This document shows positions 1,697 through 53,992 of a stretch of 64,000 nucleotides of DNA, one piece after another. The notes under the pieces are model-generated. The model made no database searches and was not told the DNA's origin. It was given only the letters and a program-made list of their open reading frames with translations. Source of the stretch: an uncultured Gammaproteobacteria bacterium (lineage in GTDB: Bacteria; Patescibacteriota; Patescibacteriia; JAHIZJ01); contig CAZQLY010000001.1 of NCBI GenBank assembly GCA_964594455.1, forward strand, positions 133,989-197,988. Direction: 5' to 3'. Position numbers and translations under genes: made by a program. How positions within the stretch are numbered: the stretch's first letter is position 1; every line of letters begins with the position of its first letter.

Positions 1697-1702
1697 AATA
1701 AT

Positions 1703-8537: not shown

Positions 8538-8602
8538 AACACCTCCTATTGATGGTTTATTGACAAATCTGCGTTTACAAAGAACAAAAAAGCACTGTAA
8601 TA

Positions 8603-17660: not shown

Positions 17661-17662
17661 GG

Positions 17663-17968: not shown

Positions 17969-18057
17969 ACAAGTTAAATGAGACAGGCCTTCCGTTTATC
18001 TGTTATGAAATTAGTGTGTATTATCTATTTTGTCAAGGGTATATTTACTAGTTTTAT

Positions 18058-18093
18058 AAAAAAACCCACCAAAATGGCGGGTGAGGGAAAGAT
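18058..18093 (-). terminator. Terminator repeat B
   Basis: aaaaaaacccaccaaaatggcgggtgagggaaagatc, directly 3' of the 18094 gene stop. Confidence 0.6.
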
Positions 18094-18486
18094 CTAGGTG
18101 TGCTGACCGATCAGGTCAGCGAAGATTTGGCGTGGGAGTGCCGGCTCTTTTAGGATTAAAGAAGGAACAACACTCTCAGTTTGGACATCAGGGGTGACGT
18201 AGTCAGTCCAAGATGTGCCAGGATGAAACTTGGGCGAGTCGATATGCGTGTTCGTTAGAAGAAATACGGCGCCATTCAACTCCAGCCCCTCGAGATTAGC
18301 TATCTGCGCTAAAGCCAGATAGACTAATCGATTCCAATCTGAGGGAGTAACATTAAAAAATTCCACCGCTAGTACAAACAGCGGTTTCTCTCCCGTCTGA
18401 TGGTCTGGTTTGTAATAGCGGAAAGTGCAGTCAGTAACTCCATCGGTTACTTGGACGGTGCAAATGGATTGATTTATGCGGCCCAT
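18094..18486 (-). CDS. Hypothetical protein (GC-rich islet)
   Basis: Start MGRINQ with GAGGAGGTG SD; possible weak similarity to the 27908..28180 protein (shared TPSD and KFHP motifs). Confidence 0.45.
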   Translation of the reverse strand: MGRINQSICTVQVTDGVTDCTFRYYKPDHQTGEKPLFVLAVEFFNVTPSDWNRLVYLALAQIANLEGLELNGAVFLLTNTHIDSPKFHPGTSWTDYVTPDVQTESVVPSLILKEPALPRQIFADLIGQHT

Positions 18487-24035: not shown

Positions 24036-24977
24036 ATGGATAAAGCGAAGGTTGAAATAATGCGCAAAGAGATATTGAATCGACCAGACGTTGGGTCAAT
24101 TAAAATTTTTGATACATTCAAAAATGAGTCTGGCCGCAAAGACGTTATATTGATAAAACAAAATAACCAAAAAAAGATAGTCCGAATTGGCGAAGCCAGA
24201 CCGGATTATTTTTTTTCAGATGGGTATCAAGGCGAATATCTGGTAATACCCAAAATATATGAGATTAACAAACAGGAAATCGTTTATGAAATAGAAGAGT
24301 ATCTTGAGGGGCCTACGCTTTGGAAAAAGCTTGGGCGGAGTAACAGCTTTTTTTTACCAGAAGACCTGTGGGATTTATTGTTTTCAGCCTTTTGGGAATT
24401 TCAATCAGTAGCCAAAGAATTACCCTTTGAACAAAAGATGACGATAGAAAAAGTGATAAAGCATTTTGATAAGGCAAAAGAGTTAATCCCTGATCAGAAA
24501 GAAACACTATCGTTGATTAAAAAACTGGAGTCGAAGTGGAATTCCAGCTATCCGTCCAAGTGGAAGTTTGCCTTGGACAATCTGATCTATATCAAAGATA
24601 AAAAAATCGGTTTCATAGACAATGATAATGTAGGTAGCAGGTTCCTGGGTTATGACCTGGGCTGGGTTATCTGGCCTGGTTGGGTGCATATGAGAACAAA
24701 GGACTATCGGAACAGGTTTGATCAATACATTAAATACTTGAAAAGTATTGAGAAGAGATTTGCTAGATCCTGTCCTAGTAACCTAGACTTAGATGAAAAA
24801 TTATCCGATGCTTTTTGGCTGGCAATATTTGAGCGTATTATCGGAGCATTGTATGATGTAGTTAATCAAACTAAGCATTTGGCGCCTGCTAGGATTATAA
24901 AAAACAGTGTCAAAGAAAAAGAACACACAAACTTCCTTGTGCGATTGTTAAAAGTCGTTAGTGATAGATTAGAATGA
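24036..24977 (+). CDS. Hypothetical protein, possibly phosphotransferase (APH/choline-kinase fold)-like
   Basis: IGFIDNDNVGSRFLGYDLGWVIW resembles the APH catalytic loop and D...DLG region; weak. Confidence 0.35.
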   Translation: MDKAKVEIMRKEILNRPDVGSIKIFDTFKNESGRKDVILIKQNNQKKIVRIGEARPDYFFSDGYQGEYLVIPKIYEINKQEIVYEIEEYLEGPTLWKKLGRSNSFFLPEDLWDLLFSAFWEFQSVAKELPFEQKMTIEKVIKHFDKAKELIPDQKETLSLIKKLESKWNSSYPSKWKFALDNLIYIKDKKIGFIDNDNVGSRFLGYDLGWVIWPGWVHMRTKDYRNRFDQYIKYLKSIEKRFARSCPSNLDLDEKLSDAFWLAIFERIIGALYDVVNQTKHLAPARIIKNSVKEKEHTNFLVRLLKVVSDRLE

Positions 24978-35546: not shown

Positions 35547-35599
35547 AGTAACCTCCTTAGTTGGTGGTTCACGAAGCTTGTCAGTTTATCAAAACCTAT

Positions 35600-36061
35600 A
35601 TGAATAAGCAAGTTGATACATTTTTTCCTAAACGCATGCACTGGGTTTTGAAGCTGCGCCAAGTGACTGATTATTGGCTGACTCTGATACCTTGGCCAAA
35701 TCTGAATCCCACCATAGTATCGATACTATCATTGTTGGCAGCCCTGGGCTTTGCCTGGGCATATCTAGAGGGGTTAGTTTGGATAGCGTTAGTACTTTTG
35801 ATAATAAACATGCTAGGCGATTGGATTGATGGCGCTATCGCCAAGCGGCACAACCGCACTAGTTTCAAGGGGTGGGTGATAGACAACGTAGTTGATCGAG
35901 CTTCCGAAGGGATCATTTTGATACAGTTCATGGAGCCTTGGTTTTCTATGTTTGTCATCAATTGCTTCATGGCGTTTTATTCGTATGCCTTTCGTTGCAA
36001 TATAATTATTCCTTTACGCATAATATTCCTAGTTTATTATTTGATAATTATTTTTATATAA
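35600..36061 (+). CDS. CDP-alcohol phosphatidyltransferase family protein
   Basis: Signature D-G-x2-A-R...G-x3-D-x3-D present as DWIDGAIAKRHNRTSFKGWVIDNVVDRASE. The track start at 35561 (TTG) is unlikely because it overlaps the divergent gene's RBS; ATG at 35600 preferred. Confidence 0.6.
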   Translation: MNKQVDTFFPKRMHWVLKLRQVTDYWLTLIPWPNLNPTIVSILSLLAALGFAWAYLEGLVWIALVLLIINMLGDWIDGAIAKRHNRTSFKGWVIDNVVDRASEGIILIQFMEPWFSMFVINCFMAFYSYAFRCNIIIPLRIIFLVYYLIIIFI

Positions 36062-36067
36062 AAGTAA

Positions 36068-36610
36068 ATGTTTCAATTTGTCCTCCAGTGCCTTTGGTTC
36101 ATGCTACCGATCGGCGTGGCCAATATGAGTCCGGTGATTTTCAAAAACCAGCTTAGGGTTTTAGCTCGGCCGGTTGATTATGACATAAAGTTTTTTAACG
36201 AACCCCTTTTTGGAAAACACAAAACCTGGCGGGGATTCTTGGTTGCAACATTGGCGGGCGGCATCACTTTTATATTGCAGCAAGCACTTTACACCATCCC
36301 ATCGTTTGAGTATTTGAGCTTGTTTGATTATCCGGCCATCCCCTCGCATTTTGGATTTGTAGTCGGCTTTGGAGCATTATTTGGCGATCTGATTAGAGCT
36401 TTTTTTAAACGTCGGTTCAAGGTTTCACCGGGAAAAACTTGGCTACCCTTTGATCAAATAGACTACACTATCGGAGGATTGGTTTTTGCTTTGCCTTATG
36501 TATCGATTAGTTGGTCCGTTGCTATAACTATTGTTTTATCAGGCTTTCTGCTCCATATCATAGTGGGTCATATTGGCTATTATTTACGAATAAAGGACAG
36601 CCGTTGGTAG
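36068..36610 (+). CDS. CarS (CDP-archaeol synthase, DUF46)-like CTP-transferase membrane protein
   Basis: 180 aa with 5 TM; LPIGVANMSPVIF...RPVDYDIKFFNEPLFGKHKTWRGF matches the DUF46/CarS pattern (P.D.g..f..g...G..KTW.G). Confidence 0.5.
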   Translation: MFQFVLQCLWFMLPIGVANMSPVIFKNQLRVLARPVDYDIKFFNEPLFGKHKTWRGFLVATLAGGITFILQQALYTIPSFEYLSLFDYPAIPSHFGFVVGFGALFGDLIRAFFKRRFKVSPGKTWLPFDQIDYTIGGLVFALPYVSISWSVAITIVLSGFLLHIIVGHIGYYLRIKDSRW

Positions 36611-38654: not shown

Positions 38655-39194
38655 ATGGCAGAAAAAAAGTATTATCGTCCCAGCTGGGATGACTATTTCA
38701 TGGCTATTGCTCGAATTGTGGCCACTCGCGGAACATGTGACCGTTTAAGGGGTAGTGCAGTACTAGTTAAAAACAATCGCATCATTTCAACCGGCTACAA
38801 CGGCTCTCCTCCTGGTTTACCGCATTGTGATGATGTTGGTCATATGATGGAAGAGGGGCACTGTATTAGGACAATTCATGCCGAACACAATGCTCTGCTG
38901 CAGGCGGCTGTTATTCCCGGGGCGAGTACCGAGGGGTCAACGCTTTATGTAAAATATCTACCATGTGCGCATTGTTGTAAATATATTGTGGCTTGTGGTG
39001 TGAAAAGAGTGGTGTACGCGGACTTTTATAGAAACACAAAATCAGCAGATTACTTAGAGGAAGCTGGTCTAGAGGTAGACAAATATAAGAACAACAAGGT
39101 ATGGAATAAAAAAGCTCAAGAATTATTTGCTGAGGAAATAAAAGAGGTAAAAGCAGCTGAAGGATACGTGGTTATTAAAGACGGAGAAAAATGA
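38655..39194 (+). CDS. dCMP deaminase (ComEB/Dcd family cytidine/deoxycytidylate deaminase)
   Basis: Zinc-binding HAEHNAL and PCAHCC motifs; SD-less. Confidence 0.8.
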   Translation: MAEKKYYRPSWDDYFMAIARIVATRGTCDRLRGSAVLVKNNRIISTGYNGSPPGLPHCDDVGHMMEEGHCIRTIHAEHNALLQAAVIPGASTEGSTLYVKYLPCAHCCKYIVACGVKRVVYADFYRNTKSADYLEEAGLEVDKYKNNKVWNKKAQELFAEEIKEVKAAEGYVVIKDGEK

Positions 39195-39751
39195 TTATAG
39201 GATTAACCGGCTACACTGCCGCTGGCAAAGGTACGGTAGCTGAATTTTTAAAAGAGAAAGGGTTTGTCTATCATTCTTGTTCTGATGTTTTAAGAGAAGA
39301 AAACAAGAAATTGGGCCAGGAAAACACCATTGAGAATTTGATAACGCTGGGAAATAAACTGCGTGAAGAACAAGGACCCGGCGTGTTAGCAATAAGACTA
39401 TTAGAAAAAATAAAGGCTGAAAAAGAAGAATTATCCATAGTAGATAGTTTAAGACACCCCGATGAAATCGCCACTCTGAGAGAAACAGGCGATTTTGTGC
39501 TATTTAGCGTTGATGCGCCTCTAGACCTCCGATACGAACGAACTCAATTGAGGAAGCGAGACGAGGATAAAATTGATTTTGAGGAATTCAAAAGACAAGA
39601 ACAATTCCAAATTACCGGCAAAGGCAGTCAAGCCCAGATTCTGAACTGTATCAAGCTAGCTGATTACAACATAGTTAACGATGGAACCATTGAAGAACTG
39701 AAACTAAAAGTTGATGTTTTAATTGACGAACTCGGCATCAAAAAAGAATAG
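39191..39751 (+). CDS. P-loop nucleotide/nucleoside kinase-like protein (CoaE/dNMP-kinase fold)
   Basis: Walker A GLTGYTAAGKGTV; about 186 aa; 4-nt overlap with the deaminase gene. Confidence 0.45.
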   Translation: MIIGLTGYTAAGKGTVAEFLKEKGFVYHSCSDVLREENKKLGQENTIENLITLGNKLREEQGPGVLAIRLLEKIKAEKEELSIVDSLRHPDEIATLRETGDFVLFSVDAPLDLRYERTQLRKRDEDKIDFEEFKRQEQFQITGKGSQAQILNCIKLADYNIVNDGTIEELKLKVDVLIDELGIKKE

Positions 39752-39765
39752 TAAATAAAATACCC

Positions 39766-40413
39766 ATGCCCGCCCCAAAGTATTTAAAGGACAAAGATCC
39801 TTGGATGTTGGCCGAGGATATTCCTGATATGGATTTTGCCTTTGGGCAGATTTGGTTATCCTGTTTTGTAAATGAATTTGCTAAACCAGCCGGCCGTGCT
39901 TATAAAAAAATATTGGCAATTTTTAAAGGTTACCACTTGTGGTTTTATTATGGTGAAAAAGATTCAAACCGAGTAGGTGAGCACATAGTAAAAAAGTTCT
40001 GTGTTTATTATGCAGAGAAAGGCGTGGATAAAGTTTTCTTAAGAAAACAAGCCAAAGAATTGGCACAGCAAACACAACGTGATATTGGCGCAGAAGCCGA
40101 AATATCTGGACAGACGGGTTGTGTTGGCCGAGCTATTGGTGTAGTAAAGAAGATATTTCGTCCAGAAGGTATGGGCAAGATGAAAAAAGGCGATATACTC
40201 GTTTCCATAGCCACTGATCCAGATATAGTTCCAGCTATGAAAAAGGCCGCCGCCATCGTTACTGAACAAGGAGGAGTCACTTCGCACGCCGCTATCGTTT
40301 CTCGCGAAATGAACATACCTTGCGTGATTGGCACAAAAATTGCCACCAAAGTTTTGAATGATGGCGATAAAGTTGAAGTTGATGCCAATAAGGGTATTGT
40401 AAGGAAAATATGA
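39766..40413 (+). CDS. PEP-utilizer phosphohistidine (swivel) domain protein, paralog 1 (short N-terminal domain)
   Basis: C-terminal GDILVS..TDPDIVPAMKKAAAIVTEQGGVTSHAAIVSREMNIPCVIGT...VEVDANKGIVRKI: PF00391-type mobile domain with the catalytic His in GG.TSHAAI. Confidence 0.7.
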   Translation: MPAPKYLKDKDPWMLAEDIPDMDFAFGQIWLSCFVNEFAKPAGRAYKKILAIFKGYHLWFYYGEKDSNRVGEHIVKKFCVYYAEKGVDKVFLRKQAKELAQQTQRDIGAEAEISGQTGCVGRAIGVVKKIFRPEGMGKMKKGDILVSIATDPDIVPAMKKAAAIVTEQGGVTSHAAIVSREMNIPCVIGTKIATKVLNDGDKVEVDANKGIVRKI

Positions 40414-41432
40414 AGCTAGAATACGAAAAGCACCAGAGGAATTATACACTCCTGGCTGTGTCTTTGGTTATGGAAGAAATGATGAAAAGCCAACATTCCA
40501 AACTTTTTATCAATCCTTCGCAACCCATGTATATATATGTAAAAAACGGAGTGCTTTATCATTTTATCTCGGTGGCTAATTACTATAGTTGGACTGATCA
40601 GTGGATTAAAAAATATGATTATAAAAAAATAAAGAAGCTTTTTGATAAAAGAATAACTCAGCTCTTGGAATTCCATAAATATATTAAAAGAGATAAGCTT
40701 GATTTAGTACAGGCTGTAGATAAAATAAGTTGGTATATACTTGAGTTGCTGGACATTATAATGTTAGCCGCTTATTTGAAAGTTTATTCTACCGTGGACG
40801 ACAAAAAAACTAAAAAAATTTTAAACAAAGCCCGGCGGGAATTTGAATCTGTCCATAGGGTGGCGATAGATTTTCAGGCAAAACTGCTTAATAAAATTGA
40901 AAAAGAGAAAAATATTAAAAAGGGTAGTTTGTCCCATCTATCGATTGAGGAATATCGACGCTGGCTAAAAACTAAAAAACTTCCCTTAGGTGCATCAGCT
41001 CGCAATAAATTTTTAATGCTAGAACACTCAGGTAAGGGTGAGAGAATTTTGAACAACAAACAAGCTAAGGATCTATTAAGGAAAATAGACACCCGCGTTA
41101 ATAATAAAAATGTTAAATCAGCCAAAGGCATGTCTGCTTACCAGGGAGTCGTTAAGGGGAAAACCAAAATAATCATGGTTTTGAATCAGATACCTAAGTT
41201 TAAAAAAGATGAAATACTGGTTACTCCAATGACTGATCCACGCTACTTACCGGCCATGAAAAAAGCCTCAGCTATAGTGACTGACGAAGGTGGTGTTACT
41301 TGTCATGCTGCCATTGTAGCTCGAGAGTTAAAAAAACCATGCGTGATCGGAACAAAAATATCAACTCAAGTCTTCAAAAACGGTGACCGAGTTGAGGTTG
41401 ATGCTAACAAGGGTATTATTAGAAAAATATGA
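40410..41432 (+). CDS. PEP-utilizer phosphohistidine (swivel) domain protein, paralog 2
   Basis: C-terminal DEILVTPMTDPRYLPAMKKASAIVTDEGGVTCHAAIVARELKKPCVIGT; N-terminal about 250 aa K/N-rich helical domain unrelated to ATP-grasp. Confidence 0.7.
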   Translation: MKLEYEKHQRNYTLLAVSLVMEEMMKSQHSKLFINPSQPMYIYVKNGVLYHFISVANYYSWTDQWIKKYDYKKIKKLFDKRITQLLEFHKYIKRDKLDLVQAVDKISWYILELLDIIMLAAYLKVYSTVDDKKTKKILNKARREFESVHRVAIDFQAKLLNKIEKEKNIKKGSLSHLSIEEYRRWLKTKKLPLGASARNKFLMLEHSGKGERILNNKQAKDLLRKIDTRVNNKNVKSAKGMSAYQGVVKGKTKIIMVLNQIPKFKKDEILVTPMTDPRYLPAMKKASAIVTDEGGVTCHAAIVARELKKPCVIGTKISTQVFKNGDRVEVDANKGIIRKI

Positions 41433-42031
41433 AGTCTGAGATAAAGATAATTATTTTAGATGGGTACGGAATTATTCTGAGTCGGGGTTATCCTGACACC
41501 GTAAATTATTTGCATAAAAGATATAAGTTAGATAAGACTGAGCTACAAAAAGTTTTTTATAAAAAGTATTTTAATCTCGCAGCTGAAAGAAAAATAACTC
41601 AAAAGCAGGCCTGGCAAATACCAGTTGAGGAATTAGGTATTCCTATGACCTGGCAAGAAGTAAGAGCTTTGCACATGAGCCTATTTAGAATTAATAAGCC
41701 AGTTATGAAGTTAATCAACCAACTGCGAAATAAATATAAGGTTATCATGTTAAGCAAGAATACCAGATCTCAATTTGCTGATACCAAGAAGCTCTTTCCC
41801 AAGGTCTGGAAAAGTTTGGATGGAGTGATCAATACTTGGGAATTAAGCCTTCCCAAGGCCTCAAAAAGGACGATTTTGGAGATTTGTCGTCGATTTCGGG
41901 TAAAACCATCAGAAATAGTCTATGCTGACGATCAGAAGGTAAATTTGATTGAGCCAAAAAAAATGGGTGTTAAAACTATATTCTATAAATCATTCAAACA
42001 ATTCGATAGTGATTTGCGCAAATATTTATGA
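41429..42031 (+). CDS. HAD-superfamily hydrolase-like protein
   Basis: IIILDGYGIIL at the N-terminus (degenerate motif I) and K...VYADD motif III; embedded in the swivel-protein array. Confidence 0.45.
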   Translation: MKSEIKIIILDGYGIILSRGYPDTVNYLHKRYKLDKTELQKVFYKKYFNLAAERKITQKQAWQIPVEELGIPMTWQEVRALHMSLFRINKPVMKLINQLRNKYKVIMLSKNTRSQFADTKKLFPKVWKSLDGVINTWELSLPKASKRTILEICRRFRVKPSEIVYADDQKVNLIEPKKMGVKTIFYKSFKQFDSDLRKYL

Positions 42032-43509
42032 AAAGTAAAGCTCAATGGATAGAAACATCACGGCGAGGAAAGGCTCAACCACTTTTGGTTGTAGATGCTG
42101 TTATAGATTTGTATAAACAGAAATACTTTCAAAAAGCTCATAGAAGCAAATGGGGACCAAAGAACTATCGACAGTTTGATTCTGCTAGTTGGTTTGGAGT
42201 CAAGGATTACCAAGAATATCAAGACTTGCTGACGTTAGCAGCTGATAGTAAAGACCAGAAGTTATTGAAGTATGGTCGGGAGTACGAAAAAAGAATAATT
42301 GCTCACAGGACATTTGCTGACAAATATAGTAATTATGATTTTTACGGTCTTAGCAACAAAGAATTAAGAAAAATATTCAGTCAGTGGTTTGAGCTGACTA
42401 AGAGGTTTTGGTCATTTGCTTATGACTATATTTTTATCAACAAATTTCTACCTGACATAGTAACATCTGTAGTCGCCTCTAAGGTTCTAGATGTTAAAAA
42501 GCAGAATAAGTATCTAGGAATTCTGTTTGAAGCTGATGAACCCTCAGAGCTTAGACAGGAGAAAAAAAATTTATTGGAGATAGTGAAGTATATACGCAAC
42601 AAGAAAACAGACCTGAACAATGACATTGTTCATCGTAAATTGTCTAAACATTTAAATGAATATGCCCATCTAGGTTTTTACTATTTTAGAGGGTCATCAT
42701 ATAATTTATCCGACCTTAAAAAAAGAGTTAGTGAATACTTGAAAATAAATAGAATAGATTTTAATAAAATCGAATCAGATTTTAATAAACAGAACAAAAA
42801 TAATGCATTAGTCAAAGGAGTCATTAGAGAATTGAAACTTGATAAAAAAACTGTTGATTACATCAGATATATAAAACGTTGGGGTAGTTTATCAAACAAA
42901 GTTGACGAGACTTACGGTTACGTAGTTCACAAATGTTGGGGCCTCTGGCATGAAATCGCCAAGAGGTTTGGAATTTCTTATCAAGAATTTTATCATCTGA
43001 CCGGTACTGAAATAATTAAAAACTTAGATAGAGCTCAGCTTCCCCAGAAGTTAAAAAATAAAATTAAATTAAGACACAAAGATCATGCTCTAGTTTTAGA
43101 AAATAATAAGAAAAGCATTTATGTTGGCAATGAGCTGCGGAGCTACAGCTTGAGGGAAAAACAAGATAAAAGTTTTAACAAAAACGTAAAGGAATTGAAA
43201 GGCCAGCCAGTGTCACCGGGCCAAAAAAAGGGCAGAGTGATAATAGTACATACTGTGCATGATGTTAGAAAAGTGGAAAGAGGCGATATTATAGTAGCAA
43301 ATTCCACTAACCCTACCTATGTTCCGGCCATGGAGCGGGCTGGAGCCATAGTAACCGACGAAGGCGGATTGCTTTCTCATGCTGCTATAGTTTCCCGAGA
43401 ACTTAAGGTTCCTTGTGTTGTTGGCACAAAAATAGCTACCCGTGTTCTCAAAGATGGTGATATAATAAATGTGGATGCTGAAAAAGGAATTATTAAAATA
43501 GTTTCATAA
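42028..43509 (+). CDS. PEP-utilizer phosphohistidine (swivel) domain protein, paralog 3 (longest)
   Basis: C-terminal GDIIVANSTNPTYVPAMERAGAIVTDEGGLLSHAAIVSRELKVPCVVGT; about 400 aa novel N-terminal region. Confidence 0.7.
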   Translation: MKSKAQWIETSRRGKAQPLLVVDAVIDLYKQKYFQKAHRSKWGPKNYRQFDSASWFGVKDYQEYQDLLTLAADSKDQKLLKYGREYEKRIIAHRTFADKYSNYDFYGLSNKELRKIFSQWFELTKRFWSFAYDYIFINKFLPDIVTSVVASKVLDVKKQNKYLGILFEADEPSELRQEKKNLLEIVKYIRNKKTDLNNDIVHRKLSKHLNEYAHLGFYYFRGSSYNLSDLKKRVSEYLKINRIDFNKIESDFNKQNKNNALVKGVIRELKLDKKTVDYIRYIKRWGSLSNKVDETYGYVVHKCWGLWHEIAKRFGISYQEFYHLTGTEIIKNLDRAQLPQKLKNKIKLRHKDHALVLENNKKSIYVGNELRSYSLREKQDKSFNKNVKELKGQPVSPGQKKGRVIIVHTVHDVRKVERGDIIVANSTNPTYVPAMERAGAIVTDEGGLLSHAAIVSRELKVPCVVGTKIATRVLKDGDIINVDAEKGIIKIVS

Positions 43510-43510
43510 T

Positions 43511-44587
43511 ATGGTCAAAAAAGTTATCTACGAAGCTCATCCGCGAGACTATACTATTGTTGGTATATCGGAAGTTGCTCGTCATTATTGTACTAGCGGC
43601 TGGAAAGAGTTTAATGGACAGTTATTGGATGAATTTATCAACGTAATTGAGAACGGGAAATATATTTACTATGTTGAAGAGGACGGGCTTAATAAAATCA
43701 GCCAAGCGTTTATTAGATATAGGTTAAACAAGAACAAAGTTGATTTGCTGGGCATGTGGAAGAGGTTTGATAAAATGGTCGATGATTATTTCTCTCTGAT
43801 AAAATTACCCTACAGCAAATATTCCAAATATATGCTGTTGGATTTTTATGATTATTATATTAAGCTTCTGGGTCCGGCCTACACTGGTGCTTATGCTTTG
43901 GAATATATTGATGAAGTCAAGCCCTCAATAAAAAAACAGTTTACCGGTATTGCAAAAAAATTTCGCGACAAAGGAGAACTTATTTACAAAGACGGAGAAA
44001 GCAGGTTCATTCCAAAATATTTGAAATGGCTGTCCAAAAAAGAGTTGCCACAATACACTCCAGAACTAATGCAGTACATTTCGTGTAATGAAATGAAAAC
44101 CTGGCTTTTAACAAATAAAGGTTTGCCCAGTCCAAAAGAATTAAGATCAAGAAAGAAATTATTTGTCTTGAAGTATTATCCTGATGATAAGTTCCAAATC
44201 ATGACAGGCCAAAAGGCAAAAAAATATCTTAATAACATCAGATTAATGGAGCGCAGTACCTCGGGTGTTAAAAAGATGACAGGCACAACCGGTTATCCCG
44301 GAGTGGTTAAAGGTGTTGTAAAGATTGTGCGCTATCAGCATGAGATGAAAGGATTTAAAAACGGGCAGGTGCTGGTTTCTCCCATGACTCAGCCCAGCTT
44401 TTTAACCGTCATGAAAAAGGCTTCAGCCTTTATCACGGAAGAAGGTGGAACGCTTAGCCACGCCGCTATTGTGGCTCGAGAATTAAAAAAGCCTTGCGTT
44501 TTGGGAACAAAAGTTGCTACTAAAGTATTGAGAAATGGAGATAGAGTGACGGTAAACGCCACTACCGGAACCGTAAACAAGTTGTAG
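43511..44587 (+). CDS. PEP-utilizer phosphohistidine (swivel) domain protein, paralog 4
   Basis: C-terminal GQVLVSPMTQPSFLTVMKKASAFITEEGGTLSHAAIVARELKKPCVLGT; its N-terminal region shares short blocks with paralog 2 (YLKWLSKKELP vs YRRWLKTKKLP; GYPGVVKG vs AYQGVVKG). Confidence 0.7.
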   Translation: MVKKVIYEAHPRDYTIVGISEVARHYCTSGWKEFNGQLLDEFINVIENGKYIYYVEEDGLNKISQAFIRYRLNKNKVDLLGMWKRFDKMVDDYFSLIKLPYSKYSKYMLLDFYDYYIKLLGPAYTGAYALEYIDEVKPSIKKQFTGIAKKFRDKGELIYKDGESRFIPKYLKWLSKKELPQYTPELMQYISCNEMKTWLLTNKGLPSPKELRSRKKLFVLKYYPDDKFQIMTGQKAKKYLNNIRLMERSTSGVKKMTGTTGYPGVVKGVVKIVRYQHEMKGFKNGQVLVSPMTQPSFLTVMKKASAFITEEGGTLSHAAIVARELKKPCVLGTKVATKVLRNGDRVTVNATTGTVNKL

Positions 44588-44636
44588 ATTTGCTTAGTCA
44601 GGTTTTAACGTATATAATCAAAAAAAGTTTAAAGAT

Positions 44637-45074
44637 ATGGACTATTTATACGGAGTAACAAATTACAGTTTCTTTGATTCTTATTGGGCGGCTATCCACT
44701 TTGGTTCTGGTTTGCTGATCGGCTTATTGATTATCTTGATTTTTAGAATGGTTGATAAAAAAAGGTATTTTGGGTTTGGGATGTCCTTATTGGTATTTTG
44801 GGAGATATTTGAGTTTTTTATTCGGATACTAAACGAGTATTTTCCTAAATCTGCAGAAAAGCTAACCTTCATACCCGAAACCATGTTTCAGTCAGAAAGC
44901 ATAATTAATATTCTTAGCGATTTAATACTGGGATATATCGGCTTGGCGATTATTTATTGGATATTTGTTCGTCAGTCCGGTCTCGATCCCGATAACACAG
45001 AATATTATGATAAAAGTAAAGATAAAACGCCTCCACCCAGAAATGCGCCCCCCGACATACGGACGACCGAATGA
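44637..45074 (+). CDS. Membrane protein, hypothetical
   Basis: 3-4 TM helices; its 3' end overlaps the dut start by about 70 nt in another frame, so the true extent is uncertain. Confidence 0.4.
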   Translation: MDYLYGVTNYSFFDSYWAAIHFGSGLLIGLLIILIFRMVDKKRYFGFGMSLLVFWEIFEFFIRILNEYFPKSAEKLTFIPETMFQSESIINILSDLILGYIGLAIIYWIFVRQSGLDPDNTEYYDKSKDKTPPPRNAPPDIRTTE

Positions 45075-45432
45075 TGCTGGTCTGGATATTTTTGCATGCG
45101 GTGATCACACACTAAAACCTGGTCGGAGGTATGCCATACCAACAGGTTTTGCTATCGAAATACCCAAAGGTTTCGCTGGCTTGGTTTGGGACAAAGGTGG
45201 CCCGGCTTTTAAGTATGGAATTCATTGTTTAGCTGGTGTACTGGATGCCGGATACCGAGGAGAGCTGAAAATTGTCCTTTTAAATACCAGCGACAAAGAG
45301 TACCAGATAAAACTTGGCGATAAATTGGCTCAATTATTGATTCAGTCGGTAGAATCAGTTAAAATAGAGGAAGTAGATATATTAAGCGATACCGAGCGTG
45401 GAGAAGGAAGATTTGGCAGCACCGGCCGGTAA
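45007..45432 (+). CDS. dut: dUTP diphosphatase
   Basis: MIKVKIKRLHPE start, AGLDI, GLVWDKGG, RGEGRFGSTG dUTPase motifs. Start chosen at ATG 45007 rather than the track's 44965. Confidence 0.8.
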   Translation: MIKVKIKRLHPEMRPPTYGRPNDAGLDIFACGDHTLKPGRRYAIPTGFAIEIPKGFAGLVWDKGGPAFKYGIHCLAGVLDAGYRGELKIVLLNTSDKEYQIKLGDKLAQLLIQSVESVKIEEVDILSDTERGEGRFGSTGR

Positions 45433-45441
45433 AAATCATCA

Positions 45442-47142
45442 ATGGCAAAATTTACCAAAGAAGAAATAAAATTATTAAAGAAATATATCACTAACCCTAC
45501 GGGTGATGTTTTTTGTATTACGGGACTAGAAGGAATGGTCGGAGCGGCTTACGCTCGGTACAGCCGGGCCAGGGGCGGTTTTCGAGAGGTTTTATTAAAC
45601 GAATTCATAAAAGAAGGCGTAGTTGATCCATTACACGCGGAAGAATTGATTCAGCGGGTATTAATCGCTTTTGGAGATGATTCGGTTGGTGAATTAGAAG
45701 GCGCTCATTTGTCAGTTGAGAATGTTTCAGTGTTAGGCACAAAAGAGATGGAAGAGTGTCGTATTGGCGGATCACCGATTGAGCAGTCAACCCGCTATGT
45801 TTTTTACGATCAAAAAAAAGATGATGGTGAACATAGATATTACCGAGACCCCAAGATTATGCAGTCGCAGCATGCCAAGGAGTATACTGAGACGATGGAT
45901 TTCTTTTTCCAAACCTACTGCGATTTGATTGAGCCGATGAAGAAGTATTATAAGAAACTTAAGTCTTTAAAATCTGCCGAGTACGATATCAAGGGTACTG
46001 GCAATAAACAGCACTTCGAAGAACTGACCAGCGAAGAAGACAAAAAAGCCTTCAAGATGACTTACTCAATGGACTTGAGAACTAGAGCTTGTGATGCTTT
46101 GCGCTATATTTTGCCGATAGCTACTCAAACAAATGTAGGCTGGTTTGGGAATGGAAGGTTTTATCAAGGAATGTTGTCTAGTCTATATTCTAGCCCCTTT
46201 ACCGAAACTCAAAACATCGCTAAATCTGCTCAAGAGGAATTAAACAAAGTTATACCAGCTTACGTGAAAAGAGCCAATAAAAATGATTATCAAACAACGA
46301 TTGATAAAGAGATGTATCAGTTGGCTAATGAAGTCACAAAAAAGTATGATATTTTACCGGGCGAGGAAGTCGGACTATTGGATTCCGGGGTACATTATAT
46401 ATCTCACAAGCTGGGAGATGGCTATATCACATTAGAAAAAGTAAGAAAAACAATCCAAGATCGTCATGACAACGTAACGATTGCCATGATGCTATACGCC
46501 TATTCGAAGCACCCGCTGAAACAGCTGGTTAATTATATAGTTCCAAATTTAACAGACGATCATAAGAAGCAGGTTATTAAAACATATGTAGGCAATCGAC
46601 GCACTCGACGCGATCGGCCATATCGGGCTTTAGAATCTGGTTATCCCTATACCTTTGATTTAGTAACTGACTTTGGTGTTTACAAGGATTTAATGAGACA
46701 CCGAATGACCTCACAGTTGCGCCAGAGGTTTTCACCATTATTGGGCTTTGTCGTGCCGGATGATATTAAGAAAGCTGGATTTGAAAAAGAGTTCTTAAAT
46801 TGCCACCAAAAGTCATCAGAGCTGTATAATAAACTCTTCAAAGAATTTCCCGACGAAGCATCATACGCCACCCTTCATGGTTCAAAAGTCCGCTGGCTGA
46901 TTGGTTTTAATGAGCGCGAGGCTTATCATCTTTTGGAACTAAGGACCACTCCCCAAGGACACACTGCATATAGAAAGATTGCCCAGCAAATGCATAAGAA
47001 AATAAAAGAAGTAAGCCAGTGGAGAGCTGATAACATGAAGTTTGTTGATTACAATGATTACCAATGGGCTAGAGCCGATTCCGAGGCACGGCAAAGGGTA
47101 AAAGAGCGTGAACTGGAAGAAAAGTTAAAGCATAAAAAATAG
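45442..47142 (+). CDS. thyX: Flavin-dependent thymidylate synthase ThyX, long form
   Basis: ThyX signature RHRMTS...S (RHR-x2-S) in the C-terminal half; at 566 aa it is about twice a canonical ThyX. Confidence 0.65.
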   Translation: MAKFTKEEIKLLKKYITNPTGDVFCITGLEGMVGAAYARYSRARGGFREVLLNEFIKEGVVDPLHAEELIQRVLIAFGDDSVGELEGAHLSVENVSVLGTKEMEECRIGGSPIEQSTRYVFYDQKKDDGEHRYYRDPKIMQSQHAKEYTETMDFFFQTYCDLIEPMKKYYKKLKSLKSAEYDIKGTGNKQHFEELTSEEDKKAFKMTYSMDLRTRACDALRYILPIATQTNVGWFGNGRFYQGMLSSLYSSPFTETQNIAKSAQEELNKVIPAYVKRANKNDYQTTIDKEMYQLANEVTKKYDILPGEEVGLLDSGVHYISHKLGDGYITLEKVRKTIQDRHDNVTIAMMLYAYSKHPLKQLVNYIVPNLTDDHKKQVIKTYVGNRRTRRDRPYRALESGYPYTFDLVTDFGVYKDLMRHRMTSQLRQRFSPLLGFVVPDDIKKAGFEKEFLNCHQKSSELYNKLFKEFPDEASYATLHGSKVRWLIGFNEREAYHLLELRTTPQGHTAYRKIAQQMHKKIKEVSQWRADNMKFVDYNDYQWARADSEARQRVKERELEEKLKHKK

Positions 47143-47176
47143 TCCGGACAAATCAAAACATCCGGCTGTTTTTTTA
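47143..47176 (+). terminator. Rho-independent terminator after thyX
   Basis: tccgga-caaatcaaaaca-tccgg then ttttttt. Confidence 0.65.
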
Positions 47177-47182
47177 TACACA

Positions 47183-47211
47183 TTGACACTACCTATTAAT
47201 TAAAATAAAAT
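47183..47211 (+). promoter_or_regulatory. Sigma70-like promoter (TTGACA, 17 nt, TAAAAT) for tdk
   Basis: ttgacactacctattaattaaaataaaat, followed by the 5'-UTR hairpin tgtgcg-gaggaa-cgcaca at 47213-47232. Confidence 0.5.
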
Positions 47212-47273
47212 CTGTGCGGAGGAACGCACATTATAGCCAAATCAGACATGAGAATAAAAGGAGGTGATTGGTT

Positions 47274-47915
47274 ATGGCTTGGGGCCCGAAAATAATCGTA
47301 GTCATCGGTTCAATGTATTCTGGTAAGACCGGTTTTCTTTTCCGTCTAGCGAGGCAACTTATCAGGATGAAGCGTCACGGCACAAATATTCCGTTTGTGT
47401 GGTTAAGGCCATCTATCGATACACGCGATGGAGACCAGAGTATGATCGTAACTCGCAACAGGGAAGTGTTGGAAGGCGTGGAAGCCATCATCTTTCGGGC
47501 CAGTCGACCCAGCGATATCCTGCGTCATCCGCAAGTGAGAGAGGCTAAGCTGGTTTTCATCGACGAATTGCAGTTTGCCGGCGCTCGACTTTATCGCACC
47601 GTGATAAAACTTCATGAGATGGGAAAACGAGTGATTCTTGCTGGGCTAGACATCGACCACATGGGTAGACCATTTGATACCACCGCCCGGGTTGCGCTAA
47701 TACCCGAAGCTAAAGTATTCAAATTGCGTGATGGCGTTTGCATCAGATGCGGTGCAGTAGCTACGCATTCGCTGCGATTGATAGATGGTATACCCGCACC
47801 AGCAGACTCTCCCAGATTTATGGTTCAAGGTCAAGAAAAGGTTGATTACGAACCCGTATGTAGGAGGTGTCAGATAGGGGCATATGATAAAGCCGGCATT
47901 AGTTTCTTCTTCTAG
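47274..47915 (+). CDS. tdk: Thymidine kinase (GC-rich islet)
   Basis: P-loop GSMYSGKTG, C-terminal zinc ribbon (CIRCG...CRRC); AAGGAGGTG SD 9 nt upstream of the ATG (the track's TTG at 47268 is too close to the SD). Confidence 0.8.
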   Translation: MAWGPKIIVVIGSMYSGKTGFLFRLARQLIRMKRHGTNIPFVWLRPSIDTRDGDQSMIVTRNREVLEGVEAIIFRASRPSDILRHPQVREAKLVFIDELQFAGARLYRTVIKLHEMGKRVILAGLDIDHMGRPFDTTARVALIPEAKVFKLRDGVCIRCGAVATHSLRLIDGIPAPADSPRFMVQGQEKVDYEPVCRRCQIGAYDKAGISFFF

Positions 47916-47968
47916 CCTTAGCCTTCAGCTCACTAGAGTGAAGGCTTTTTTTATGGTAAAATAATGGC

Positions 47969-48403
47969 ATGAATTACTTACTAACATTTGCCTGGATTGT
48001 AGTCACATTTGCCTCAATTTCTTTCTGGGAGGCTTATATTGAGGGCCATCATGGAGGAGCTTCCAAGCAGGTGGGCTGGGTCTGGAACATATTTGGATTG
48101 AGATTAACAGGCTATCATGTGATGCTCTTCGGGGTAACTATTCCGCTTTTTCTGCTGATGCCTTTTATCGCTTATGGTTATGACGGCAAATTACTAGTTA
48201 CAGTTGTTATCGGATATTTGATTGGAATAGTAGTCGAAGATTTCTTGTGGTTCGTGGTTAATCCAGTTTACCCGCTAAGAGACTTCCGTCCAGAAAAAGT
48301 TTGGTGGTTCCCTTGGATTAAGTTAGGCAAGTTCAGGTTGCCGTTTTTCTACCCACTAGCAATTGTCATTGCCCTGGTTTTATACTTTTTATTTCTCAGA
48401 TAA
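47969..48403 (+). CDS. Membrane protein, hypothetical
   Basis: 4 TM helices, Trp/Phe-rich. Confidence 0.5.
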   Translation: MNYLLTFAWIVVTFASISFWEAYIEGHHGGASKQVGWVWNIFGLRLTGYHVMLFGVTIPLFLLMPFIAYGYDGKLLVTVVIGYLIGIVVEDFLWFVVNPVYPLRDFRPEKVWWFPWIKLGKFRLPFFYPLAIVIALVLYFLFLR

Positions 48404-48427
48404 AGTGTGTTAAAATTAGTTTGAATT

Positions 48428-49048
48428 ATGAAAAGAAACGGATATTTAATTGCCATTTACGGCATAAACAATTTAGGCAAGACCACTCAGGCAAAAAGAC
48501 TGGTGGATTTTTTGAATAAGAATGATTGGCCGGCTGAGTATGTGAAATACCCGGTTTATAGACAAAAGCCTTCCGGTCAGTATATTAATCAGATTCTCAG
48601 GAGAACGACTGAACAGCCGATCTCCGAGGAAGAATTTCAGATGTGGTATACTGTTAACCGTTTCCAATACGAGCCGGTGATAAAAAAGAAAATGGATAAT
48701 GGAAAAATCATCGTGGCTGAAGATTATATAGGGACTGGCTTAGCCTGGGGTGCCACAAAGGGGGCTAGCTTGGATTGGCTAGTCGAGATGAATGAACCTC
48801 TCCACAAAGAGGATTTGGCTATATTATTTGATGGTGAAAGATTTCCCGACGGCAAGGAAAAAAAACATCTACACGAGACAGACGATATATTAATGAAACG
48901 CTGTCGTCGCTGGCATCAGAAGTTAGCCGAAATGTACGGCTGGAAATTGGTAAACGCGAATCAAAAAGTAGATGAAGTCCATCAAGACGTCTTGGAGATC
49001 GTATCACAATTTTTGAGGAGTAAAGAAATATGGCAGAAAAAAAAGTAG
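48428..49048 (+). CDS. Thymidylate kinase-like dNMP kinase
   Basis: P-loop IAIYGINNLGKTTQ, DYIGTGLAWGATKG (like Tmk DRY..S..AYQ); divergent. Confidence 0.55.
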   Translation: MKRNGYLIAIYGINNLGKTTQAKRLVDFLNKNDWPAEYVKYPVYRQKPSGQYINQILRRTTEQPISEEEFQMWYTVNRFQYEPVIKKKMDNGKIIVAEDYIGTGLAWGATKGASLDWLVEMNEPLHKEDLAILFDGERFPDGKEKKHLHETDDILMKRCRRWHQKLAEMYGWKLVNANQKVDEVHQDVLEIVSQFLRSKEIWQKKK

Positions 49049-52443: not shown

Positions 52444-52513
52444 GGTCTGAAGCTCTGTGGTTATAGAATGTACGTTGATAATCGGGCATGAAAAACACGC
52501 AAGGAGGGGGTTG

Positions 52514-53992
52514 ATGAAACACGTAATCAGCGCGCAGGATTTCCGGGCTGACTGGGTTCAGGAGGTGCTGGAGCGAGCCACTTTCAATATCGAAACCTAC
52601 CGTAGTGGTGAGCCGAAGGGACACAAAAGCACCAAGGCGACAGTGTTCATTGCTGAGCCAAGCACCCGGACCAGCGGGTCCTATAGTGAGGCTGCCCGAC
52701 TGGCCGGCTGTGCCAGGGAGGGTATTTCTGGCGCCGATCTGACTTCATTGGTCAAAGGTGAAACTTTAGGAGCGACCGGTAGAATGTTCAGTGGCCAGAA
52801 CACAGCACTGCTGCCTATTCGCACTAGGATCGAAGGAGGAGCCAGGTGGCTGACCGAGATGTTCGCGATGGAGGGTTATGAATACCTGACCGCAGTTCAT
52901 AACTGCGGCGATGGATCCAACGAACATCCGACTCAAGCCTTGCTTGATCTGCTGACGATCCAGCAGAAATTGAATCGCTTAACAGACCTGAAGATCGGGT
53001 TTGTAGGTGATCTGAGGAACAGCCGGACGGTTCACTCATTGGTCGGGGTTCTCAGGCTTTTCACTGGCATCAAGATTGTCCTGGTGTCTTCACCATCAGT
53101 CAAACTGCCTGGGTGGTACACCGAAGGAATGGAGGTTGAGCAATCACAAGAGATTGAGGCGCTCCGTGGATGCGACGTTGTCTATGTCACGCGTGTCCAA
53201 GCAGAGCGTTTCGGTGGCAACAAGGTAGAGTATGAGCGTGTCCGGGGCCTGTATTCAATTGGCGTCAAGGAATTGGAGTTGATTGGTCCTAAGACTCAGA
53301 TAATGCATCCTCAGCCGATCAATCAGACTGACCGTGATATCGATCCGAGGATTTGGCGTCATCCGCAAGTGGTCATGGATTTTCAAGCTCAGATGGGAAT
53401 TCCAATGCGCATGGCTCTGATCGAATGGTCGTTGGCTCATATCAAGGACAGTGTTGTATCTGAAGCTCCTAAGCCAGGAATCGCTGTTTTGAGCGAGCGC
53501 TCAGCTGGCGAGGCCTTGCGGGCCAAGCATGCGAGGAATCAATACTTCACGCCAATTGAGCGGGGAACGGTTATCGATCACATTCCGCACGGCTTGGGCG
53601 CGAAGGTTGAAGCAGTATCTAACGCTGAAGCTAATAACGGCGATGGTGCTGTCCTGTTGCTCAAGAGACTCCGGACTCAAGGTGATCCTGGGACCAAGGA
53701 TGTGTTGGTAATCGAGGACGGATTCCTGTCTGATGCGGAGAAAGCAGCTATCTCGGTGATTGCACCAAGTGCGGTCTTCAACGAGATCAGAGAGGGACAA
53801 ATCATCAAGATGCGAGTCGAATCGGTTTCACAGATCGGCATCGGCAAGTGTCCCAATTCCAACTGCATTACCCAACAGGACATCGAAGCCGCACTGTATC
53901 CTGGTTTCAGTATCGTGATTGAAGACGGCGGACACATCAGACTGGTCTGCCGCTACTGCGAAAGACACTTCCATCGCGAGGAAGTGATCTAG
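52514..53992 (+). CDS. pyrBI: Aspartate carbamoyltransferase with fused catalytic (PyrB) and regulatory (PyrI) chains (GC-rich islet)
   Basis: PyrB motifs STRT (EPSTRTSGS), HPTQ (EHPTQALLD), HPQP; C-terminal about 160 aa with a PyrI-like allosteric domain and a 4-Cys zinc domain (CPNSNC...CRYC). Start at ATG 52514, 6 nt after AGGAGG. Confidence 0.8.
   Translation: MKHVISAQDFRADWVQEVLERATFNIETYRSGEPKGHKSTKATVFIAEPSTRTSGSYSEAARLAGCAREGISGADLTSLVKGETLGATGRMFSGQNTALLPIRTRIEGGARWLTEMFAMEGYEYLTAVHNCGDGSNEHPTQALLDLLTIQQKLNRLTDLKIGFVGDLRNSRTVHSLVGVLRLFTGIKIVLVSSPSVKLPGWYTEGMEVEQSQEIEALRGCDVVYVTRVQAERFGGNKVEYERVRGLYSIGVKELELIGPKTQIMHPQPINQTDRDIDPRIWRHPQVVMDFQAQMGIPMRMALIEWSLAHIKDSVVSEAPKPGIAVLSERSAGEALRAKHARNQYFTPIERGTVIDHIPHGLGAKVEAVSNAEANNGDGAVLLLKRLRTQGDPGTKDVLVIEDGFLSDAEKAAISVIAPSAVFNEIREGQIIKMRVESVSQIGIGKCPNSNCITQQDIEAALYPGFSIVIEDGGHIRLVCRYCERHFHREEVI

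Follow-up and report, generated by a model that had tools for sequence, protein, structure and literature searches.

The closest described counterparts of the genes reported here are the two-component enzymes HpeHI, CreHI and PpsAB (phenylphosphate synthase), in each of which one protein carries the ATP-grasp and a second the substrate and swivel domains (PMC12167813). The activity of HpeH is abolished by mutating its His, and HpeH alone moves phosphate from 4-phosphoacetophenone to acetovanillone (PMC12167813). In view of these split enzymes, the view taken in the initial annotation of our sequence, that known phosphohistidine enzymes always unite the swivel and ATP-grasp domains in one protein, is outdated.

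In the window, by which we mean the whole 64-kb stretch of DNA analysed, four same-strand genes, P1 to P4, form an array with a gene for a HAD-superfamily hydrolase inside it (Table 1). Three of the junctions from P1 through the HAD gene to P4 are 4-nt overlaps and one is a 1-nt gap. The four genes lie exactly where they had been annotated, each with a C-terminal swivel domain and a catalytic His. Each protein has one Pfam match, to PF00391 at the C-terminus (E 2e-25 to 2e-27; 88.5-94.8 bits, above the gathering score of 23.1 bits), and the motif GG..[S/C]HAAIV is present in all four. The catalytic His is invariant in both family alignments, A1 and A2, and its motif is retained in 267 of the 283 swivel domains of related loci. 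As had been claimed, Pfam and NCBIfam domain searches found neither PF01326 (ATP-grasp) nor PF02896 (the PEP/pyruvate TIM barrel) in P1-P4; with no ATP-grasp, these are therefore not single-chain enzymes resembling rifampin phosphotransferase (RPH). A split canonical ppsA or ppdK, named beforehand as an outcome that would count against the annotation, was looked for and not found, and the C-terminal domain of E. coli PpsA, used as a phmmer query, matched nothing in the 64-kb window.

Table 1. Array genes and flanking genes, in window coordinates
Feature	Coordinates	Strand	Catalytic His (codon)	Description
dCMP deaminase	38655-39194	+		PF00383, E 4e-24; context only
P-loop kinase	39191-39751	+		AAA_18 and PRK08356-like; context only
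P1	39766-40413	+	His174 (40285-40287)	215 aa; swivel phosphohistidine module, most of substrate-binding domain deleted; PF00391 at aa 140-210, E 2.4e-27
P2	40410-41432	+	His299 (41304-41306)	340 aa; putative short-class H-type module, reduced RIF-binding-like domain + swivel; PF00391 at aa 264-335, E 1.3e-26
HAD-superfamily hydrolase	41429-42031	+		200 aa; inside array; PF13419, E 7e-7
P3	42028-43509	+	His451 (43378-43380)	493 aa; putative long-class H-type module, full RIF-binding-like domain (aa 1 to ~385) + swivel
P4	43511-44587	+	His317 (44459-44461)	358 aa; putative short-class H-type module
dUTPase (dut)	44965-45432	+		context only
ThyX	45442-47142	+		double-domain; context only
Thymidine kinase (tdk)	47268-47915	+		context only
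Small membrane protein	between tdk and tmk	+		context only
dTMP kinase (tmk)	48428-49048	+		context only

Directly N-terminal to the swivel, the predicted models show the fold of the RIF-binding domain of RPH, which is also the closest solved structure to the modules. Residues 163-493 of P3 align to positions 504-820 of the 827-position RPH-like NCBIfam model, the region past the ATP-grasp, and the P4 family matches the P3 family with an hhalign probability of 100%. The models suggest that each module consists of a substrate domain of the RIF-binding type followed by a phosphate-carrying swivel His. These substrate domains, of about 250-385 aa, are highly divergent: many array modules score nothing against either substrate-domain HMM, and the P3 domain alone matched only 169 representative clusters among 1.84 billion. 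P2 and P4 had been said to share short N-terminal blocks; they are indeed related, but the likeness extends over their full length (31% identity, 359 columns), and the HMM built from the N-terminal domain of the P4 family gives P2 a score of 128 bits. In other genomes, too, a P4-type gene directly follows a P3-type gene. Invariant or near-invariant residues are R152, E156 and R214 in the P4 family and D293, E294, R313 and R349 in the P3 family; the R-x-x-x-E of the P4 family is replaced by Asp-Glu in the P3 family. In profile alignments RPH is covered only from residue 699 on, and neither its rifampin-binding residues nor its phosphate-binding block Arg666/Glu667/Lys670 could be mapped by sequence onto either family.

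P1 had been taken for a paralog with a short N-terminal domain, and this reading did not hold. The orthologue in the syntenic relative L006 has 535 aa; P1 residues 1-78 correspond to its first 78 (70% identity) and P1 residues 76-215 to its residues 396-535 (81% identity). Because the two segments match the two ends of the orthologue, about 317 codons are missing in frame. Judged by sequence, P1 derives by internal in-frame deletion from a conserved paralog of about 535 aa and is probably a crippled copy. The identical 215-aa sequence is on record from a Logan assembly. We consider it probable that P2-P4 are the H-type parts of a split ATP-dependent small-molecule dikinase of the RPH superfamily and that P1 is the deleted remnant of a fourth.

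Such a dikinase would need an ATP-grasp partner, and we observed a family-wide association with one. An ATP-grasp ORF occurs in 37 of 84 related CPR and DPANN loci, each cut at +/-10 kb. In four it belongs to a canonical PpsA that has the TIM barrel, and in 33 a non-canonical PpsA-like ATP-grasp lies beside the modules or is fused to them. It is a stand-alone gene in 24 loci, with a product of about 312 aa (~311-341) and often only 0-100 bp from a module, and in nine it is fused to at least one RD-swivel module, nearly always as the N-terminal part of the protein. One Micrarchaeota locus (L011) has the order P3 orthologue, ATP-grasp, HAD. The family partner matches the N-terminal domain of E. 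coli PpsA with E-values of 1e-39 to 1e-53. Stand-alone ATP-grasp proteins average 57% identity, versus roughly 30% among the modules, which fits one shared component. A protein database search with this ATP-grasp gave at least 8,000 candidates at E <= 1e-10; the best 120 matches are without exception 310-338 aa long and carry PF01326 alone, and those among the 120 with a named source are mostly from CPR phyla. Such proteins are thus very common among CPR bacteria. From these comparisons, the partner of the modules is likely a stand-alone PpsA-like ATP-grasp protein of about 312 aa. The partner dependence proposed at first is thus supported, but the partner is likely neither PEP nor the upstream P-loop kinase.

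Within the 64-kb window no separate ATP-grasp (I) component is encoded with the H components: the best six-frame match to an HMM of the CPR ATP-grasp has E = 2, and Pfam found none among the scanned ORFs of at least 140 aa. In characterised two-component dikinases the two genes adjoin. However, in the closed Falkowbacteria genome CP066698 one locus holds at least five modules, a HAD gene, a His_Phos_1-like gene and the ATP-grasp, and a second locus, about 335 kb away, holds two modules with no ATP-grasp within 10 kb; modules can therefore sit far from the ATP-grasp.

The recurrent neighbours of the arrays are phosphatases, namely HAD proteins and a histidine-phosphatase-like family. The suggestion that the HAD gene belongs with the modules is supported, since members of the same family, of about 200 aa, are found no more than 5 kb from swivel genes in 13 loci, also in L089, and the L090 member is joined to a module in one protein (HAD 5-201, RD 233-590, swivel 598-705). 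A HAD phosphatase motif I, DxDx[T/V], has two Asp residues; the embedded gene reads D11-G-Y-G, with the nucleophile kept and the Asp+2 general acid/base missing. In the alignment of the 13-member family this position is Y, H, G, R, V or N (Asn in the L090 fusion). Motifs II-IV are present. The protein belongs to the HAD fold by its PF13419 match, with ordinary phosphatase chemistry not assured.

We infer the chemistry as follows. The separate PpsA-like ATP-grasp protein, which would be encoded outside the window, would bind ATP; the swivel His of a module would attack the beta-phosphate, giving AMP, Pi and His~P; and the swivel would swing back to its own substrate-binding domain and phosphorylate the bound small molecule. 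Given how divergent the substrate domains are, the paralogs probably act on different substrates, with one ATP-grasp common to all. The embedded HAD is probably a functional partner, as product phosphatase or as phospho-acceptor. As substrates we favour scavenged metabolites or xenobiotics over nucleosides specifically.

In very small symbiotic bacteria and archaea this family of modules has expanded enormously. Across the 84 loci, tandem arrays reach 11 intact genes, fusions or pairs of two modules are frequent (P0059), and the largest fused protein (L047) joins an ATP-grasp to eight swivel domains in 3,761 aa. We found no paper describing this expansion in the literature searched, the coverage of which was incomplete. 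With genomes of about 1 Mb, CPR and DPANN organisms obtain most metabolites from their hosts; even so, in some of them up to about 20 kb is given to this one family. A possible, if rather doubtful, extension of the split-dikinase reading is a modular phosphorylation platform in CPR and DPANN, in which one conserved ATP-grasp charges many fast-diversifying, substrate-specific phosphohistidine modules. The modules would be dispersed, in tandem or strung into polyproteins, the window array being one dispersed branch. Dedicated HAD and histidine-phosphatase-like partners would accompany them, and the HAD lacking the general-acid Asp might take phosphate from the swivel His in a His-to-Asp relay. 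Such a platform could trap or process many scavenged metabolites where biosynthetic pathways are absent. If true, it would be a new kinase organisation, and it may give these symbionts a major, unstudied means of capturing, activating or detoxifying small molecules. It would also put right a frequent misannotation: metabolic reconstructions name these genes 'phosphoenolpyruvate synthase' or 'pyruvate, water dikinase', although their products cannot make PEP.

The same enzymology could serve another role, with the paralogs inactivating xenobiotics or antibiotics as RPH does and diversifying in an arms race with hosts or neighbours. The structural match to RPH agrees with this, as do the extremely fast divergence of the substrate domains next to conserved swivel and ATP-grasp domains, the different copy numbers in close relatives (the window and L006) and the transposase genes inside two arrays (L004, L089). 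Against it, HAD or histidine-phosphatase-like partners would reverse an inactivating phosphorylation, and the share of such small genomes devoted to the family, in both CPR and DPANN, better fits a core physiological role. We regard this alternative as unlikely.

The initial annotation had proposed a phosphocarrier for nucleosides or nucleotides, charged by PEP or the P-loop kinase and reversed by the HAD enzyme, in the service of thymidylate salvage. The flanking genes are as it described, with dCMP deaminase and kinase upstream and dut-thyX-tdk-tmk downstream, and both the upstream pair and the downstream order are conserved in L006. Arrays with close P3 orthologues lie near genes for phosphoribosyltransferases, PRPP synthetase and LOG (L004, L089), PfkB kinases occur close to arrays in four loci, and the genes of the window array are closely spaced, the + strand from 38.6 to 47.1 kb showing no convincing terminator. 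CPR genomes, however, are generally compact and co-directional, so adjacency says little, and at the same site L006 has only two modules and no HAD, so that the array varies within a fixed gene order. Nor is the context conserved family-wide: dut is close to arrays in only three related loci, the dut-thyX-tdk-tmk context was not seen in array loci other than the window and L006, and among the 148 neighbouring proteins surveyed 146 different Pfam families are represented, none with more than three members (Pribosyltran has two). The salvage link is thus local to this lineage. Without PF02896, nothing in the array can bind PEP; P-loop kinases are not known to charge swivel histidines, and the real partner of the family is the ATP-grasp. 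A nucleoside or nucleotide substrate is unsupported, and we judge this model quite improbable.

Equally hard to favour is transphosphorylation independent of an ATP-grasp, in which modules would pass phosphate from one small molecule to another, or to the aspartate of the HAD, with phosphorylated metabolites as donors. HpeH alone does transfer phosphate between small molecules (PMC12167813), the window and many array loci have no ATP-grasp, and both the paired modules and the HAD, without its general acid in 13/13 members and fused to a module in one locus, would suit such transfers. Yet in 33 loci the ATP-grasp lies in or beside arrays, and it stands at the head of the fused polyproteins, the CP066698 modules show that it can be distant, and its absence from loci cut at +/-10 kb is weak evidence. 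Regulatory or structural swivels do occur, one example being the C-terminal domain of Bacillus pyruvate kinase, but a non-catalytic role or pseudogenised duplicates would be most surprising here given that P2-P4 are intact ORFs with confident full-length predicted models, the His motif is conserved, and orthologues are maintained across phyla and across domains.

Returning to the split-dikinase reading, we compared the modules with known systems. With PTS Enzyme I only the swivel part agrees (36-46 bits against TIGR01417, cut-off 342); unlike Enzyme I/HPr, the modules have no HPr-binding or PEP-binding domains, and the 64-kb window contains no PTS genes. The prodiginine ligases PigC, HapC and RedH share the order of substrate domain then swivel (P2 residues 158-338 align to positions 695-880 of the 883 in the NCBIfam PigC model), but these are single chains with an ATP-grasp, and the modules score far under the cut-offs of such families (73 vs 1300 bits). 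Another single-chain member of the superfamily with an ATP-grasp is the L-glutamine kinase Cj1418. RPH itself (PDB 5hv1/5fbs) is one chain with an N-terminal ATP-grasp, unlike the modules, and is only 18-19% identical to them. The swivel sequence is nearer to PEP synthase than to RPH (104 vs 60 bits), and most like the archaeal PEP synthase 8a8e (104 bits for P3); unlike PpsA and pyruvate phosphate dikinase, the modules lack PF02896 and a same-protein ATP-grasp, and the RPH-type domain replaces the pyruvate site. With HpeHI, CreHI and PpsAB the modules share an RPH-type substrate domain, a C-terminal swivel, the lack of an ATP-grasp and the motif GGxx[S/C]H. They differ in having many H-type paralogs per genome (four here, up to 11 intact in a row and up to eight fused) that apparently share one ATP-grasp without needing to adjoin it, in their smaller substrate domains, in the phosphatase genes that accompany them, and in their hosts, which are CPR bacteria and DPANN archaea and not aromatic-degrading bacteria. 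Our verdict is that the array is a multi-paralog form of an already known kind of split dikinase.

Across the array region the + strand genes are tightly packed, and the assignment of each is confirmed by Pfam and by NCBIfam. The four paralogs, P1 to P4, each have a C-terminal PF00391 swivel domain as their sole Pfam match (E 2e-25 to 2e-27), with the motif GG..[S/C]HAAIV. Neither the ATP-grasp domain (PF01326) nor the PEP/pyruvate TIM barrel (PF02896) matches P1-P4 in Pfam or NCBIfam, which bears out the initial annotation's description of four tandem swivel paralogs devoid of both. Fragmentation of a canonical ppsA or ppdK gene is ruled out, ATP-grasp and TIM-barrel signal being absent from P1-P4 and from the whole window. 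Overlaps of 4 nt join P1/P2, P2/HAD and HAD/P3, a 1-nt gap separates P3 from P4, and a promoter and terminator scan gave 43 promoter-like sites, near the shuffle background of 34.8 +/- 6.8.

Features of the window and of related CPR and DPANN loci (L numbers; positions within each locus)
Feature	Position	Strand	Content
Urocanase	6492-8612	-	706 aa
OPT oligopeptide transporter	18598-20394	-
ORF without Pfam match	24036-24977		313 aa
CDP-alcohol phosphatidyltransferase and CarS-like CDP-archaeol synthase homologue	35561-36610
dCMP deaminase	38655-39194	+	Pfam, NCBIfam
P-loop kinase	39191-39751	+	Pfam, NCBIfam
P1	39766-40413	+	215 aa; PF00391 C-terminal, His174
P2	40410-41432	+	340 aa; PF00391 C-terminal, His299
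HAD hydrolase	41429-42031	+	200 aa; Pfam, NCBIfam; nucleophile Asp11 (codon 41459-41461)
P3	42028-43509	+	493 aa; PF00391 C-terminal, His451
P4	43511-44587	+	358 aa; PF00391 C-terminal, His317
Small membrane protein	44637-45074	+	no Pfam family
dut	from 44965 as listed	+	TTG start
ThyX	45442-47142	+	566 aa
tdk		+
Second small membrane protein	47969-48403	+	no Pfam family
tmk, gatB		+
PyrB-PyrI	52457-53992		511 aa
L047 ORF	7223-18508		3,761 aa; ATP-grasp then 8 swivels
L082 ORF	5565-11624		2,019 aa; 4 swivels
L033 ORF	6938-12922		1,994 aa; at least 4 swivels
L066 ORF	7217-11842		1,541 aa; 3 swivels
L026 ORF			1,313 aa; 2 swivels
L069 giant ORF	247-6230		ATP-grasp fused, not N-terminal
L090 HAD-module fusion	16311-18428		705 aa
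297-aa family, L066	11853-12746
297-aa family, L091	3490-4443
Y1-type transposase, L004	7963-8433
Y1-type transposase, L089	8792-9379

In NCBIfam, residues 163-493 of P3 align to positions 504-820 of the 827-position model related to rifampin phosphotransferase (RPH), and residues 158-338 of P2 align to positions 695-880 of 883 of PigC, in both cases the region that follows the ATP-grasp. AlphaFold2 models of P3 and P4, built from alignments of about 50 homologues, have pLDDT values of 94.2 and 95.9, respectively, and a pTM of 0.91 each. Profile-profile comparison shows homology between the P4 and P3 families along their whole extent (probability 100%, E 2.5e-69), with about 135 additional residues in P3 (about 153-290); between P2 and P4 the full-length identity is 31%. 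From the alignments, the models and the profile comparison we conclude that P2-P4 consist of an RPH-type substrate-binding ('RIF-binding') domain together with a swivel, the ATP-grasp being missing. All other strong matches are confined to the swivel domain of ~100 residues. A CPR single-chain homologue aligns with RPH solely across the ATP-grasp and swivel domains. RPH Arg666, Glu667 and Lys670, the first two of which are essential in the RPH substrate domain (PMC4844700), lie beyond the reach of the sequence-profile alignment to P3 and P4, which ends at RPH residue 699. Precomputed annotations of PF02350 epimerase fusions (proteins P0109 and P0117) were rejected: the weak matches overlap the swivel, and the long proteins merely contain two swivel modules.

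P1 departs from this layout. Its first 78 residues align with the first 78 of a 535-aa protein that occupies the corresponding place in the syntenic relative L006 (70% identity), and its residues 76-215 align with residues 396-535 of that protein (81% identity), an in-frame loss of about 317 codons that takes away the greater part of the substrate domain. In its full-length form (504-580 aa) this paralog is unusually well conserved: the stretches that align are 42-81% identical to P1, and it occurs in loci labelled bacterial and archaeal. P1 is a deletion derivative, the remnant of a full-length module; an identical 215-aa sequence is recorded in a Logan assembly.

Proteins like P3 (~490 aa) and P4 (~355 aa) are common in CPR bacteria (Magasanik-, Buchanan-, Nealson-, Falkow- and Doudnabacteria, and Patescibacteria generally) and in DPANN archaea (Micr-, Woese-, Nano- and Diapherotrites); their annotation goes no further than 'PEP-utilizing enzyme' or PEP synthase. 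We called ORFs in 78 loci from species-representative genomes and in additional context loci, and searched them with purpose-built HMMs of swivel, substrate domain and ATP-grasp. The usual arrangement is a tandem array: in L013, 11 swivel genes (13 module-related ORFs) lie within 20 kb, and arrays of 11, 10 and at least 8 occur in L090, L059 and L001, respectively. A P3-type gene is directly followed by a P4-type gene in the window, L001, L005, L089 and L090, and in two-swivel relatives of 700-860 aa a P3-like half precedes a short module. Five loci (L047, L082, L033, L069 and L066) carry uninterrupted giant ORFs of 1,541-3,761 aa, made up of one PpsA-like ATP-grasp and a unit of substrate domain and swivel His domain that is repeated 3-8 times; the labels found among these loci are Woesearchaeota, Nanoarchaeota, 'uncultured bacterium', 'archaeon' and Patescibacteria. 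The His motif is retained in 267 of the 283 swivel domains of the related loci, and the P3 substrate domain alone, searched against 1.84 billion representatives, matches just 169 clusters; divergence of the substrate domains is very fast. Two arrays contain Y1-type transposase genes, which fits with the array variation between close relatives. Several array-bearing MAG contigs (L032, L036, L041, L046, L080 and L081) bear the labels Gammaproteobacteria, Bdellovibrionales or Methanosarcinales; in gene content they resemble the CPR and DPANN loci, so mistakes in binning or taxonomy may lie behind these names.

An ATP-grasp ORF, searched for by phmmer with E. coli PpsA residues 1-345 and then with an HMM from the CPR matches, is present in 37 of 84 loci. 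It is a stand-alone gene of ~311-341 aa in 24 of these, frequently 0-100 bp from a module; it is fused to modules in nine, N-terminally in all except L069, and belongs to an ordinary PpsA with a TIM barrel in four. In Micrarchaeota locus L011 a P3-orthologue is followed by the ATP-grasp and then by the HAD, and an 833-aa protein of L021 combines ATP-grasp, substrate domain and swivel in a single chain, its ATP-grasp being about equally similar to those of RPH and archaeal PEP synthase. The stand-alone ATP-grasp proteins have a mean identity of 57% across bacteria and archaea, far above that of the modules, which is the pattern expected of one shared component. All 8,000 candidates scored in the protein database reached E <= 1e-10, and the best 120 of these 8,000 are PF01326-only proteins of 310-338 aa whose source names, where given, are mostly CPR phyla. 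Within the 64-kb window no ATP-grasp was found, either with the CPR HMM (best six-frame match E = 2) or by Pfam scans of all sizeable ORFs; the 313-aa ORF, considered as a hidden ATP-grasp, gave nothing against the HMM and a weak APH hint (E 0.044). The closed Falkowbacteria genome CP066698 (977,025 bp) is a direct precedent for modules remote from their ATP-grasp: one locus (L091) holds at least five modules, a His_Phos_1-like gene, a HAD and a 312-aa ATP-grasp, and another (L092), about 335 kb away, holds modules of 356 and 441 aa with no ATP-grasp within 10 kb.

Clustering of 756 ORFs within 5 kb of modules gave, as recurrent neighbours, a ~200-aa HAD family (13 loci including the window), a 297-aa family (seven), HTH_10 and TrmB regulators (six each), an ABC ATPase (five), and a T4SS coupling protein, DUF4012, a GT4 glycosyltransferase, a PfkB kinase and a weak His_Phos_1 family (four each). 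The HAD also occurs in L089, and in L090 it forms a single protein with a module. In the 13-locus alignment the nucleophile Asp is kept and the second Asp of motif I is missing in every member, the Asp+2 general acid/base position being occupied by Tyr, His, Gly or another residue (Asn in the L090 fusion). The 297-aa family (L066, L014, L019, L032, L037, L065 and L078; also L091) has no Pfam match at E <= 1e-3 and shows the RHG...R..ET...H motifs that typify the histidine-phosphatase (PGAM/SixA) superfamily; we read it as a putative divergent histidine phosphatase, a second phosphatase-like partner of the arrays.

The initial annotation had proposed that the paralogs act on nucleosides or nucleotides, for which the sole support is that the array adjoins nucleotide genes, and it does so in a compact genome. 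This association recurs in the window's own lineage, in L006, where the genes follow the window's order with just two modules and without the HAD, and in L004 and L089, with phosphoribosyltransferases and LOG nearby. It does not hold elsewhere: dut is close to arrays in only three loci, and a Pfam census of 148 neighbours gave 146 families of at most three members each. We regard a nucleoside substrate of these paralogs as improbable. We consider it likely instead that P2-P4 are H-type modules of a many-paralog split dikinase whose ATP-grasp is encoded elsewhere, with the HAD as functional partner and P1 as a remnant. What the analysis shows is the content and fold of the domains, the conservation of the His and the associations across the family. 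An ATP-grasp protein encoded outside the window would charge P2-P4, presumably by ATP -> AMP + Pi chemistry; this partner in the present genome, and the substrates, we infer.

ThyX contains two Thy1 stretches and is ~2x the usual length; its counterpart in L006 has 565 aa, so the doubled form is conserved. The two small multi-pass membrane proteins (144-145 aa) among dut, thyX, tdk and tmk have ORFs of comparable size and position in L006. The listed dut ORF overlaps the first of them by 110 nt, so the real start is probably further downstream. NF041025, the anti-phage dCTP deaminase model, is matched in part by the dCMP deaminase (77 bits) and in part by the P-loop kinase (56 bits), both far short of its cut-off of 400 and with the domain order reversed; the two genes are probably a housekeeping pair. 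PyrB and PyrI, the catalytic and regulatory chains of aspartate carbamoyltransferase, are fused, as is the case in L006. One or more steps of de novo pyrimidine synthesis are thus present, which contradicts the earlier assumption of no de novo nucleotide synthesis. The urocanase and OPT transporter genes, on the strand opposite to the array, sit in two islands where G+C is elevated (0.52-0.53, compared with about 0.41), which may reflect horizontal acquisition. The CDP-alcohol phosphatidyltransferase and the CarS-like homologue lie just upstream of secE-nusG-rplK-rplA in a genome otherwise bacterial (CPR) in appearance. Over the whole 64 kb, this region included, ARAGORN detected no tRNA genes, and Rfam gave no match at gathering score.

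The type of enzyme is already known. RPH comprises an ATP-grasp (1-314), a RIF-binding domain as well as a swivel (767-865), whose His825 moves phosphate from one site to the other over about 49 Å; the enzyme is one member of a large superfamily, the distant clades of which use other substrates (PMC4844700). The premise that a swivel is always paired with an ATP-grasp in the same protein is outdated, because HpeHI, CreHI and PpsAB are two-component versions (Dexter et al. 2025, PMC12167813), in which the I component is the ATP-grasp and the H component a RIF-binding-like domain plus swivel. HpeH passes phosphate between two substrates without its partner, and His581Gln abolishes its activity (PMC12167813). 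As far as we found in the literature, many modules sharing one ATP-grasp, giant polyproteins, and phosphatase partners across CPR and DPANN appear to be new.
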